The notes beneath the pieces are model-generated. The model made no database searches and was not told the origin of the DNA. It saw only the letters and a program-made list of their open reading frames with translations. Both the position numbers and the translations under genes were made by a program. Source: Minisyncoccota bacterium (GTDB taxonomy: Bacteria > Patescibacteriota > Minisyncoccia > Phycocordibacterales > UBA2100). From it: DNA of 64,000 bases. Each line of letters starts with the position of its first letter. Positions within the stretch are counted from its first letter, which is position 1. The stretch is from the NCBI GenBank assembly GCA_043780835.1, contig JAYWCB010000005.1, positions 125,945 to 189,944 of the forward strand. Reading direction: 5' to 3'. Shown piece by piece: positions 48,190-62,358 of this stretch.

Positions 48190-48235
48190 AGTCCGGTCAG
48201 CGTGAATGCGAACCGGACTTTTCTGTTTGCGTCAT
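48190..48235 (-). terminator. rho-independent terminator (for 48279..48854)
   Basis: AAAAGTCCGGT..ACCGGACTTTT hairpin, T-run on minus strand. Confidence 0.5.
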
Positions 48236-48259
48236 GTGCAAGGTGTCATCTTGCACACA
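48233..48259. repeat. REP-like palindrome variant (ATGTGCAAG-gtgtcat-CTTGCACAcAT)
   Basis: Shares GTGCAAGGTG core with 60551 and 62342 copies. Confidence 0.45.
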
Positions 48260-48278
48260 TCACATCTCACTTGTTTTT

Positions 48279-48854
48279 TTAGTGAGGAGCAAATCGGTGG
48301 TCGAACAGATGGGGCACGACTGCGCAACGAACTGCCCACGAAAGGAGTTCCGTCCGATCTATAGAGCCGCAGGAGAAGTACGCCATCGGATTTTTGTCAG
48401 GGGCACCTCGTTTCATAACCACGGTACCGAGTTCGCTCTGCCGTGCTTCGTGCGCGGCCCATTTCGGTATCGGGAATCCGGGACCGAAGCCGACGCTTTC
48501 TCGACCGTCGCGTGCAATTATTACGGCGATCGCGGGATCGAAAAAAAGATCCTGAATTTCCACAATGCCGCTCTCGAGCCCAAGACCGAAATCTGCGCGA
48601 ATGGCCAATTGCAGTGCAGTATTCGCTCGAGCACGGGCGCCCGACAGCATTTCATCGAATCCTTCGGGCTGATCTGCGACGCCGCTCTCAACGGTTTGTG
48701 GAAGAACCACGACTTCATAGTTGAAATGTCGGAAGCCCGTAATGACTGCCTTAATTTTGAGCGCACTTGTGCTTCCAAGTGCAACGACGCAACGTTTGCT
48801 GAATGTTTCCGACACAGTACCTCCACGGTTTGGAATGGACCCGCGCCGAATCAT
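48279..48854 (-). CDS. inosine/xanthosine triphosphatase-like (NTPase_I-T / YjjX family)
   Basis: VALGSTSALK..SGVADQPEG..ADFGLGLESG pattern; real start probably internal. Confidence 0.45.
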   Translation of the reverse strand: MIRRGSIPNRGGTVSETFSKRCVVALGSTSALKIKAVITGFRHFNYEVVVLPQTVESGVADQPEGFDEMLSGARARANTALQLAIRADFGLGLESGIVEIQDLFFDPAIAVIIARDGRESVGFGPGFPIPKWAAHEARQSELGTVVMKRGAPDKNPMAYFSCGSIDRTELLSWAVRCAVVPHLFDHRFAPH

Positions 48855-48887
48855 ACGTAGGGGTATCGAGGTGTCAACGATTCAAAT

Positions 48888-48925
48888 AAAAAGACCCGGA
48901 TTGCTTCGGGTCTTTTTATTTTGAG
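48888..48925 (-). terminator. rho-independent terminator downstream of rpsA
   Basis: AAAAAGACCCGG..CGGGTCTTTTTATTTT. Confidence 0.55.
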
Positions 48926-48936
48926 TCGTTTGTTTG

Positions 48937-50052
48937 TTAAACAACCGGCTTGAGTGTCATGCGACGCTCCTTCGGTTCGAAGAAGGTGATCGTAAACGGG
49001 TACACCTTGCCGAGTTCAAGTTTTGCGCGCAATTCGTCTTCGCTGCCGAATTCGGAGATATGCACCAAGCCTGCAACACCTTCCTCGATTGAGGCGAGCG
49101 CGCCGTGCTTGTTGTACTTGATAACCACGGCTTCCACCTGCTGATCCTTCTTGTACTTCGCCGCAGCTGCCTTCCATGGGTCATCCACGAGTGCCTTGAT
49201 AGAAAGTGACACCTTGTCGTCCTTTATTTCAATAACCTTCACTTTGACCGGTTCGCCAACCTTGTAGCGAGTCTTTGGGTTTTCAACGAGCGCCCAGTCC
49301 ATTTCAGAAATGTGCACGAGTCCTTCCAAGCTGTCCTCAAGCTTCACGAAGACGCCGAATTCAGTCGCACCGGTGACGACGCCGTCGAGGACGTCGTTTA
49401 CGTTGTACTTGCCAACGAGCGATGCGCGCTCAGATGTGCCTGCACCCTTTTCGGAGAAAATAAGCTTCTGCTCCTTGGGATTTGCGGTAATAACCATCAC
49501 TTCGAGCTTCGTGCCGATCATTTTCTTCAATTCAACGAAGATCTTGTCCTTATCGCCATCCGGAACACGAGGATAGTGTGCCGGTGAAAGCTGCGATGCG
49601 GGGAGAAAGCCCTGGATTCCATTCCAGCTGATGATGAGACCGCCTTTGTTTGCATCCGTGATAGGAAGCTCAAACACGGTCTTCTTCTGCGATGCCTGTT
49701 CGGCTTCGTTCCAGATAAGTGCCTGACGAGCTTCGCGGAGCGACAATTCAATGTAGCCCTCAACGTTTTCATTGCCGACGACCTTCGCGGTTACGAGATC
49801 GCCGATGTTGACGTTCTTGAGTGTCTCGCGTGCCGAGAGGTATTCGCGACCATAAATAATACCCGTCCCGAACGGGTGGAGATCGACGAATACGCGTGCG
49901 CGACCGATCGCAACGACCGGTCCTTCAACCACGTCGTCCATGACCGGTACCTTTGGTGCCGTCAAAAGCAGTTCCGCCATCGGACCCTTCTTTTCCTGTA
50001 CAACCTCGACGTCGGTATCCTCGACGTCTTTAACTACTTCTTTTTGAGCCAT
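48937..50052 (-). CDS. rpsA: 30S ribosomal protein S1 (short, 4 S1 domains)
   Basis: Repeated S1 OB-fold segments (GDLVTAKVVG.., GKYNVNDVLDGVVTG.., GEPVKVKVIEI..). Confidence 0.8.
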   Translation of the reverse strand: MAQKEVVKDVEDTDVEVVQEKKGPMAELLLTAPKVPVMDDVVEGPVVAIGRARVFVDLHPFGTGIIYGREYLSARETLKNVNIGDLVTAKVVGNENVEGYIELSLREARQALIWNEAEQASQKKTVFELPITDANKGGLIISWNGIQGFLPASQLSPAHYPRVPDGDKDKIFVELKKMIGTKLEVMVITANPKEQKLIFSEKGAGTSERASLVGKYNVNDVLDGVVTGATEFGVFVKLEDSLEGLVHISEMDWALVENPKTRYKVGEPVKVKVIEIKDDKVSLSIKALVDDPWKAAAAKYKKDQQVEAVVIKYNKHGALASIEEGVAGLVHISEFGSEDELRAKLELGKVYPFTITFFEPKERRMTLKPVV

Positions 50053-50219
50053 TGTGTTTGGTGGATACGGCGCTCCGCCCCTTACGCTACCGTGCCTTTC
50101 GGAGGGGGAGTATGAACCGTTTCCATTAACTAATAAATGGTCCGCACACTATATATAGAGCGAGACCGCTGTGCAAGGCTTGATGTAACGGTGACTGAGT
50201 CTGTGATAATATCGTCCTC

Positions 50220-60648: not shown

Positions 60649-61512
60649 ATGTCGCTCGAGAGGCCGCGGAAGTCGATTGGAAAATACGCGGTTGAAGAAA
60701 TACGGAAAATAAAGCTCGATCGAACACCCACACGCCTCGCATATGATATTGAGTTTCGCGAACGTCTTCCCGAGATACGCGAGTTATACAAACAGGTTGA
60801 ATATTGGCACGGAACGGGTCGTTACAGATTCGACAAAAAGGGAGAGGTATACGACATAGTGAGCGGAATCGCAAAAAATCATGCGCTCATTCCGCATGCT
60901 GACGAATGGGATCGAGCACGCGAGAAGGATGAGATTCTGACTACCTCGGTAGCGCCTTCGCGTATGTACGCTCGCCTGTACGCGGGAACGCACTGCCCGG
61001 CCGGAACGCGTATTGAAAACGAACTCGGTTCACGAGAATTATGGGGGCACTCCTTCCTTACAGTCAGTGCGCTGCGAGGTATGTTGGAGTACTGGCCACA
61101 TATTTCACAACTTCGACGTGGAGATGATTCGTCTACGTTTATACCTGGGTACAAGAACAAATCGGAAGCGTGGATAAAACAGATTTCGGCACAGGATCAC
61201 AATTTGAAAGACATTTTTCTGCATGGAACCGACATAGCTGAAAACTACCCCGTTCTTTTTGGATTTAAAAAAGGATCACTCGTTCCCACGAAGACGTCGG
61301 CCTTCATTGGATTGTTTGAAAAGCGAACAGAGCAATCAATAGCTATTGAGCAATTCACTCATGTTGAGGTGCCGTACCGTAATGTAGCGGAAACAGAACG
61401 TGTTTTCGAGGATGCTGGTGAGCATGTACGTGTGCTGCCGATTGAATGTGGGGAAGAGTACTGTCGAAAGTATTCCTTCCTGCATTTATGGAACGGTAAA
61501 CCGCTTGAATAG
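60649..61512 (+). CDS. hypothetical protein (287 aa) inserted downstream of helicase gene
   Basis: ORF between degenerate hairpin copies and followed by duplicate helicase 3' end; no domain recognised. Confidence 0.5.
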   Translation: MSLERPRKSIGKYAVEEIRKIKLDRTPTRLAYDIEFRERLPEIRELYKQVEYWHGTGRYRFDKKGEVYDIVSGIAKNHALIPHADEWDRAREKDEILTTSVAPSRMYARLYAGTHCPAGTRIENELGSRELWGHSFLTVSALRGMLEYWPHISQLRRGDDSSTFIPGYKNKSEAWIKQISAQDHNLKDIFLHGTDIAENYPVLFGFKKGSLVPTKTSAFIGLFEKRTEQSIAIEQFTHVEVPYRNVAETERVFEDAGEHVRVLPIECGEEYCRKYSFLHLWNGKPLE

Positions 61513-61540
61513 TGGAAGGCTAAACCTTCCACTTTAAGAT

Positions 61541-61608
61541 CAACCGACGACGTACACCGAATCGGTCGAGCAGGCAAAGATGGCATGGCGCTGACCTTCG
61601 TAGGTTAG
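61541..61608 (+). pseudogene. degenerate duplicate of DEAD-box helicase 3' end (last ~21 codons)
   Basis: Reads ..TDDVHRIGRAGKDGMALTFVG* versus gene end ..[26 protein letters not shown]. Confidence 0.55.
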
Positions 61609-61691
61609 TTGTACTTGAAAAAACGACCCGATACGGATCGTTTTGTAATTGCTATGCAAAATTCATAATAGGTTGTATATAAATAGAGGAA

Positions 61692-62279
61692 ATGGAGGTA
61701 CCAATGTTTGACTCTCAAATCAAAGTTACCGTTGCGGCATATATGACGCGAAGCGCATATTTCACTTTGGCAGAACCGTCTATTGAACCCGTGTTCGCGA
61801 AAGATATCATCGATGGACATTCTCAGTACGTCGGCAAGCTTGGGAAGGAAGAGCAGATTGCGATGCGGCTCGCCATGATCAAACAAACGCTGCCACATGC
61901 ACATCGATTGCTGGTCGAGGAATCAGCTTCGATACTTTCCGTTGAGGCACAGAATGTGCGATACCTTATCGGGCCCGGATACGCGGTGCCAATTTACAAA
62001 AAAGTAGCACACGCGATCCATGTCTGCGCGAAAGCGAGTGACGATGAAGCCTACTTCGGTATTATCGAGATTTCAAAACGGCTTGTCACGATTGCACAGC
62101 TGCCCTGGCTTTGGGGATTTACCAATTGGCAGTGGAAGTTTAGTGAGCGTCCATTACAGTCTGCAGTGCGGGACTACTTTCAACTCATGACCGGCGTAGA
62201 AGAGCTGCAACGAACTGCAGTCGATTGGGTGCGCTCCCACGATAACCTAGCGACAGCTGCACAACGCAAGCGCGCATAG
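61692..62279 (+). CDS. hypothetical protein (195 aa)
   Basis: ORF followed by strong terminator. Confidence 0.45.
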   Translation: MEVPMFDSQIKVTVAAYMTRSAYFTLAEPSIEPVFAKDIIDGHSQYVGKLGKEEQIAMRLAMIKQTLPHAHRLLVEESASILSVEAQNVRYLIGPGYAVPIYKKVAHAIHVCAKASDDEAYFGIIEISKRLVTIAQLPWLWGFTNWQWKFSERPLQSAVRDYFQLMTGVEELQRTAVDWVRSHDNLATAAQRKRA

Positions 62280-62285
62280 TTCCTT

Positions 62286-62322
62286 ACAGCCCGAGCAATC
62301 GCTCGGGCTGTTTTCATTTTGT
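62286..62322 (+). terminator. rho-independent terminator
   Basis: CAGCCCGAGC-aatc-GCTCGGGCTG TTTTCATTTT. Confidence 0.6.
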
Positions 62323-62341
62323 AAATTTGATGAACAGCGGC

Positions 62342-62358
62342 GAGGTGTCACCTTGCAC
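62342..62358. repeat. REP-like palindrome GAGGTGTCACCTTGCAC
   Basis: Reverse complement of 60551 copy. Confidence 0.45.

Follow-up and report, generated by a model that had tools for sequence, protein, structure and literature searches.

What are the short palindromes that accompany a transposase gene in a Patescibacteria genome, and why do some of them stand at the edges of DNA that close relatives lack? The question is raised by a 64-kb stretch of contig JAYWCB010000005.1 from a Minisyncoccota bacterium (the window, to which all coordinates refer). The window holds a single gene for a HUH/Y1 transposase similar to the REP-associated tyrosine transposases (RAYTs; REP, repetitive extragenic palindrome). 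Hairpins of one type, h0, mark the two ends of this gene, and five further palindromes lie apart from it (Table 1). These five, h1 in three copies and h2 in two, are orphan hairpins of the RAYT class, which have no gene of their own and lie at the edges of strain-specific DNA.

Palindromes and transposase gene of the window

The original prediction described three related palindromes besides those of the RAYT gene, and all three were recovered where it had placed them (h1a, h1b and h1c). Their consensus is GTGCAAGGTG-N-CACCTTGCAC, against which the mismatches in Table 1 are counted; shuffled sequence gave zero matches to it, against three sites with one to three mismatches in the window. The h1b palindrome had been said to possess an exact inverse at 62342, which is true of 16 nt (60551-60566 against 62343-62358) and fails at the 17th base. 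A palindrome scan brought out a further type that the prediction had missed, h2, with the form GGAAGG-CTAAA-CCTTCC.

The motif AAGG-N5-CCTT is found five times in the window, in every case within these hairpins, against 0.67 expected, and none of 100 shuffles reached five. A chance origin of the palindromes is thus ruled out by the shuffles. Without a stem, AGG-N5-CCT occurs in the window at near chance frequency, and the bare 8-mer GTGCAAGG is also present at 12350 and 50171 with no surrounding palindrome, so the 8-mer alone is close to what chance would give. The AGG-N5-CCT core is intact in h1b, h2 and h2'; in h1c it survives between decayed outer stems, and in h1a a single base change (CCT to TCT) has abolished it. 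Since similarity around h1 ends at about 21 nt, we rejected the idea that h1 is a piece of a larger miniature inverted-repeat transposable element.

All seven hairpins are extragenic, that is, intergenic or overlapping a stop codon only. The orphans are situated at gene 3' ends next to intrinsic terminators, and none is in a promoter region. The h1a hairpin lies between a terminator (~48185-48225) and the 3' end of an NTPase gene, and h1b begins 18 nt past the stop codon of a DEAD-box helicase gene. The h1c copy, inverted with respect to h1b, ends 27 nt from the end of an amylase gene (62386) and adjoins the amylase terminator.

Table 1. Positions of the transposase gene, the hairpins and the parts of the insertion in the window.
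Feature	Position	Strand	Description
h0-3' hairpin ATCAAGGCGTCGCCTTGAT	47323..47341	.	at RAYT 3' end; perfect 9+1+9 palindrome; single-stranded DNA fold z = -3.9
RAYT-like HUH/Y1 transposase gene, 223 aa	47324..47995	-	Pfam Y1_Tnp, HUH/Tyr residues, fold
Extended -10 box TGATATAAT	48002..48010	-	ends 6 nt before RAYT ATG; overlapped by last bases of h0-5'
h0-5' hairpin	48005..48041	.	upstream of RAYT; perfect 37-nt palindrome, extends ATCAAGGCGTCGCCTTGAT copy at 48014-48032
h1a orphan hairpin GTGCAAGGTGTCATCTTGCAC	48236-48256	.	1 mismatch to consensus, a G-T pair
Strain-specific insertion, ~1.85 kb	60533..~62375	.	between helicase and amylase genes; absent in L141 and L142
h1b orphan hairpin GTGCAAGGTGACACCTTGAGT	60551-60571	.	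3 mismatches; outer right arm decayed; left insertion edge
h2' decayed h2 copy AGTGAAAGGCTAAACCTTCCATCT	60569-60592	.	abuts h1b
ORF287, cargo gene	60649..61512	+	no matches in Pfam, NCBIfam, PADLOC or PHROGs
h2 perfect hairpin AGTGGAAGGCTAAACCTTCCACT	61511-61533	.	9-bp arms, 5-nt loop; overlaps ORF287 stop codon; single-stranded DNA fold z = -4.6
Helicase 3'-end remnant, last ~22 codons and stop	61541..61609	+	decayed direct repeat of 60459-60534; 3- and 9-nt deletions
ORF195, second cargo gene	61692..62279	+	no matches in Pfam, NCBIfam, PADLOC or PHROGs
h1c orphan hairpin CGGCGAGGTGTCACCTTGCAC	62338-62358	.	3 mismatches; outer left arm decayed; right insertion edge

The RAYT product matches Pfam Y1_Tnp with 32.5 bits (cut-off 23) and, with 40.8 bits, is below the 80-bit equivalog cut-off of NCBIfam REP_Tyr_transpos (NF047646). 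Residues H81, H83 and Y141 (within QYIHCNP) are invariant across 21 homologues. An AlphaFold (AF2) model was obtained with a pLDDT of 86.6, and its best Foldseek match in the PDB was 4ER8, the E. coli RAYT-REP complex (E 1.1e-5, 205 aligned columns, TM 0.68 on the target). The TnpA proteins of IS608 and ISDra2 were weaker matches (E 2e-3 to 5e-3, ~140 columns), and a search of the PDB by sequence gave ISDra2 TnpA as its sole match (E = 0.13).

More than 1,000 homologues were found, the named ones coming from metagenome-assembled genomes of Paceibacterota, Kaiserbacteria or Patescibacteria, and more than 560 metagenome stretches encode a member of the family. Carriage by phages was rejected: viral contigs yielded essentially no member of the family, with a single distant match in IMG/VR. 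Orthologues occupy the same rpsA-…-pth-lepB-ftsAZ site in two related loci, L126 (63% identity) and L131 (58%). The flanking proteins are more conserved (S1 86% and 80%, Pth 72%) and place L126 and L131 in the same rank order; the synteny and the congruent ranking fit a long vertical residence of the gene. One homologue (P0005) was found in another genomic context. Despite its syntenic conservation, the RAYT gene (47400-48000) has a G+C content of ~40-42%, against ~50-55% in the flanks.

Read as its reverse complement, h0-3' encodes the last five residues and the stop of RAYT (I-K-A-T-P-stop), and the homologues end in K(A/V)(T/S)P. The upstream hairpin, h0-5', folds as single-stranded DNA with -20.5 kcal/mol (z = -7.2). 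The sequence ATCAAGGCGTCGCCTTGAT occurs in the window exactly twice (47323 and 48014), at the RAYT ends only. A TATAAT-like box ends exactly 6 nt upstream of the ATG in 25 of 79 homologous loci, the window included, and a TG extension is frequent. This spacing of the -10 box implies that the RAYT mRNA would be leaderless, with TGATATAAT as its putative promoter and the hairpin just upstream. With h0-5' directly adjoining the -10 box, 6 nt upstream of the start codon, the hairpin is in a position to regulate RAYT. A 38-codon open reading frame (ORF) on the plus strand (MRDIRRRLQEIRRVLVRVVINKDGTLLYYRQDELEKVV, 48031-48147) starts inside h0-5' and is followed by a terminator; no homologue of it was found among the fetched loci.

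Hairpins at RAYT loci across Patescibacteria

A scan of metagenomes yielded 80 loci homologous to the window RAYT. A matched pair of palindromes flanks the gene in 50 of the ~75 complete loci; the median distance from the end of the upstream palindrome to the ATG is 21 nt, and the downstream palindrome begins at the stop codon. End hairpins were collected at the RAYT gene ends by a search for GG-N5-CC with at least three outward pairs, which gave 106 distinct hairpins, with CAAGG as their commonest foot. Every one of the 106 carries A before GG and T after CC, giving the rule A-GG-N5-CC-T. The next stem positions beyond the three required pairs are paired in 87, 88, 74 and 63% of cases, against 26-30% in shuffled sequence, and all four Watson-Crick pair types are represented. 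It is the structure of the hairpin (stem-AGG-N5-CCT-stem, with co-varying stems) that is conserved, and not its sequence.

The rule ties the orphans to these loci. The RAYT orthologue of L131 is flanked by GTCAAGGTGACACCTTGAC, which has a 16-nt exact match to positions 60554-60569 of the window (h1b), and the CAAGGTGACACCTTGA core of h1b is the same as in the hairpins around that gene. From the shared family rule and this match it follows that the proposed kinship between the palindromes and the RAYT hairpin holds. Hairpins conforming to the rule, defined as AGG-N5-CCT plus at least four further pairs, were absent from 306 kb of unrelated bacterial loci and from 83 kb of Patescibacteria loci without RAYT. 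In 565 kb of RAYT loci, 108 of them adjoin RAYT genes.

In four loci (L126, L063, L080 and L109) there are two diverged RAYT paralogues, which have different hairpin types. Such paralogues are diverged within one locus (52% identity), and multiple near-identical copies were seen neither in the window nor in related loci. In L126 the second paralogue (gene 5714-6415, minus strand) is 52% identical to the window RAYT, lies 4 kb from the syntenic copy and has no Pfam match on record. It stands between REPIN-like doublets, TCAGAGGTGACACCTCCGA-ttt-TCGGAGGTGTCACCTCTGA, at 5684-5723 and 6414-6456. True REPIN doublets are present in relatives, a further example being L080 at 9505-9550.

The insertion between helicase and amylase genes

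The closest relatives are L141 and L142 (helicase 92%, amylase 85% identical). Their helicase and amylase stops are 26 nt apart, and this gap consists of a terminator only and is hairpin-free, from which the segment at 60533-~62375 of the window can be recognized as an insertion. The inverted h1b/h1c pair lies no more than ~20 nt from both of its edges, confirming the suggestion that the pair brackets an accessory segment. The order within the insertion is h1b, h2', terminator, ORF287, h2, the 69-nt helicase remnant, terminator, ORF195, terminator and h1c. No rule-conforming hairpin was found in ~20 kb of any of the syntenic loci (L140, L141 and L142).

Neither ORF287 nor ORF195 was accepted as a defence or phage gene, with zero matches in PADLOC or PHROGs. 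ORF287 has 13 homologues, one of them in Bradyrhizobium, all in unrelated contexts from which such hairpins are absent, and we rejected the view that it is an intrinsically hairpin-linked gene. The helicase remnant lies 1.08 kb downstream of the original gene end, immediately after h2, and is closer to the helicase end of L140 (79.7%) than to that of the window itself (76.4%). It resembles a displaced gene end, as seen at integration sites; an integrase is absent. The left h1 copy has A as its centre base and the right copy T, as expected of an inversion but not of a direct duplication; this disfavours the idea that a single ancestral h1 was the insertion target and was duplicated.

Two observations concern the surroundings. 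Contigs assembled from SRR23617225 for the identical strain (Logan L001 and L139, 0 mismatches) end at 59977 and start again at 60609; the gap spans the 3' half of the helicase gene and h1b/h2', and population heterogeneity there is a possible cause. At 58960-58994 and 59033-59115, just upstream of the helicase hot spot, the 3' end of a minus-strand tRNA-Leu gene (TTCGAGTCTCCCTCCGCCC) is repeated over 19-27 nt in inverted orientation, ~40 nt beyond that end; the repeat may be a tRNA fragment or the scar of an old attachment site.

Origin of the orphan hairpins

In our judgement the palindromes probably form single-stranded DNA hairpins, or else cruciforms, belonging to the class that the Patescibacteria-wide RAYT-like Y1 family recognises, and the orphans would have arisen from the action of a Y1 transposase. 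This explanation takes as its observed basis the class membership, the co-varying stems, the link to RAYT genes, the extragenic placement and the insertion boundary. IS608, ISDra2 and E. coli TnpA_REP are known to act at the feet of hairpins on single-stranded DNA, and the same action appears the most likely mechanism behind the orphans. The enzyme would be the resident Y1 transposase or a paralogue, located elsewhere in the genome or since lost from it, and would bind orphan-type hairpins on the lagging-strand template. It would then cleave and rejoin at the hairpin feet on single-stranded DNA, and this activity could have seeded the orphan copies, joined foreign DNA at them, or both.

Several findings weigh against an origin by Y1 action. 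Four of the five orphans (h1a, h1b, h1c and h2') are decayed and carry mismatches, the single-stranded fold of the copy at 62338 is no better than that of shuffles (z = -0.2), and the orphans differ from the hairpin of the resident RAYT at 4 of 10 stem positions. Off-gene hairpins are rare in the family, the 565 kb of RAYT loci holding 17 rule-conforming ones away from RAYT genes. At the same spot after its helicase gene (94% identical), L140 bears a different gene and no hairpin. No duplication arises from simple Y1 transposition, which therefore leaves the helicase remnant unexplained; the sequence of the remnant points to recombination at a hot spot between different alleles. Lastly, all seven hairpins fall within a 15-kb cluster (47.3-62.4 kb).

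The same decay can be read differently. The orphans could be dead relics, the solo ends of a second RAYT paralogue or of an IS200/IS605-like element that was deleted or replaced, drifting neutrally and without function. There are genomes in which two paralogues each have a separate hairpin pair, the hairpins of relatives lie overwhelmingly at RAYT flanks, and a surviving RAYT remnant is not required by this explanation. Against relics stand a tblastn search of the window, which disclosed no second RAYT and no pseudogene or remnant of one, and the perfect 9-bp stem of h2 at 61511. Moreover, h1b and h1c coincide with both edges of a block that is missing in close relatives and whose genes are unrelated and include no transposase. 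We consider an origin as relics rather unlikely.

Could the hairpins instead be the joints of the insertion itself? They would then be recombination or insertion sites, and the 1.85-kb block, or the ORF287 cassette within it, would be a non-autonomous cargo element that a RAYT-type Y1 transposase mobilised in trans. Such an element would account for the inverted h1 copies ~20 nt from both edges and the hairpin-free empty site of L141 and L142, and for the direct h2 copies that bracket the terminator and ORF287. The junction with the helicase remnant falls 7-11 nt 3' of the h2 foot, and the same-strain contigs are interrupted from 59977 to 60609. The homologues of ORF287, however, occur elsewhere without such hairpins, the internal duplication of the helicase end is not a Y1 signature, the replacement in L140 is hairpin-free, and a second copy of the block is absent from the data examined. 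A cargo element is thus a doubtful explanation, to which we give little weight.

It is highly improbable that the palindromes serve the host in regulation and have no connection with the transposase, either as operators of dimeric proteins, for which a 10-1-10 palindrome has a suitable geometry, or as 3' stem-loops that stabilise mRNA, a known side role of REPs that would suit sites just past stop codons: none lies in a promoter region and all are between convergent gene ends or before terminators (a position on which the operator hypothesis was rejected), the class is nearly confined to RAYT gene ends over ~70 loci with none in control loci, and the syntenic sites of close relatives are hairpin-free.

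Taking up Y1 action again as the preferred origin, we consider how far the hairpins have spread. The palindromes had been proposed as a dispersed REP-like family. The likeness to REPs stands in shape, extragenic position and transposase link, whereas dispersal is not shown, given the clustering of all hairpins in 15 kb. The intergenic DNA of the first 47 kb of the window, ~6.5 kb in all, contained no hairpin, and neither did the 1.1 kb gained beyond the window. Searched against 185,579 GTDB species genomes, GTGCAAGGTGNCACCTTG gave 44 single hits in unrelated taxa, at chance level; the collection excludes the source genome, and the hits are therefore uninformative on genome-wide copy number. 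What we describe is a low-copy REP-like system and not an abundant genome-wide repeat.

The window has other features that stand apart from the hairpins. A full-length match to the LOOT RNA (Rfam RF03000) is located at 23604-23732 on the plus strand, with 73 bits (gathering score 46.4). A 200-nt direct repeat (71% identity) occupies two long intergenic regions, at 2339-2538 and 17784-17983; it has no Rfam match at the gathering threshold and could be a leader common to both regions or an RNA not yet described.

Among known systems, the closest likeness is to the REP/REPIN-RAYT systems of E. coli (TnpA_REP, 4ER8) and Pseudomonas. These are likewise built on a Y1/HUH transposase, of which the 64-kb window contains one, at a fixed chromosomal site, with palindromes on both sides of the gene and related extragenic palindromes near the 3' ends of other genes; the fold of the window RAYT is also closest to 4ER8. 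The differences begin with the protein, which falls under the NCBIfam cut-off and has a C-terminal extension of ~70 aa. In the window hairpins the GTAG or CGTC foot tag (PMC3733652) was not found; their feet read cgcATCAAGG, catGTGCAAGG and aatAGTGGAAGG, and no flank is conserved across loci. They follow the AGG-N5-CCT rule instead, and the one at the 3' end of the gene codes for the C-terminus. The window has very few copies, and tight REPIN doublets (inverted REPs within ~130 bp) are absent from it, h1b and h1c being 1.77 kb apart and the abutting h1b and h2' being of different types. RAYT groups 1 and 4 have 12-14 copies of the flanking 16-mer per replicon, and in abundance the window system is nearer to these than to groups 2 and 3 (Bertels et al. 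2017, PMC5581495).

The IS200/IS605 elements (IS608 and ISDra2 TnpA) and their miniature derivatives, PATEs, share with the window the transposase superfamily and subterminal hairpins at both gene ends. Orphan derivatives that bear hairpins and lack a transposase are known in that family, and IS608 and ISDra2 are known to transpose through single-stranded DNA and to leave no target duplication. The window family differs in that multiple identical copies were not seen and its orthologues share one syntenic site at 58-63% identity. Its left and right hairpins are near-identical perfect palindromes, whereas those of IS200/IS605 are distinct and imperfect. IS608 and ISDra2 are also structurally weaker matches than 4ER8, and the window family is essentially absent from viral contigs.

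There is as yet no settled view of what RAYTs and REPs do for the host, and the REP-associated RAYTs studied best come from Proteobacteria. Among the papers searched, none pairs RAYTs with Patescibacteria. The family described here is large and conserved in this group, and combines a simple hairpin rule, a C-terminus encoded by a hairpin and a hairpin placed next to a putative promoter. Patescibacteria genomes are typically small, so that every hairpin copy could be enumerated, and the orphan hairpins at the edges of a strain-specific insertion offer a testable link between a transposase and variation in gene content. The boldest extension would be that RAYT-type Y1 transposases of these streamlined genomes use AGG-N5-CCT hairpins as joints to move or capture small gene cassettes, the 1.85-kb insertion being a non-autonomous element that carries cargo; as matters stand we regard it as improbable. 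If hairpins did serve as cassette joints, a 'domesticated' RAYT would gain a concrete role in the flux of accessory genes.

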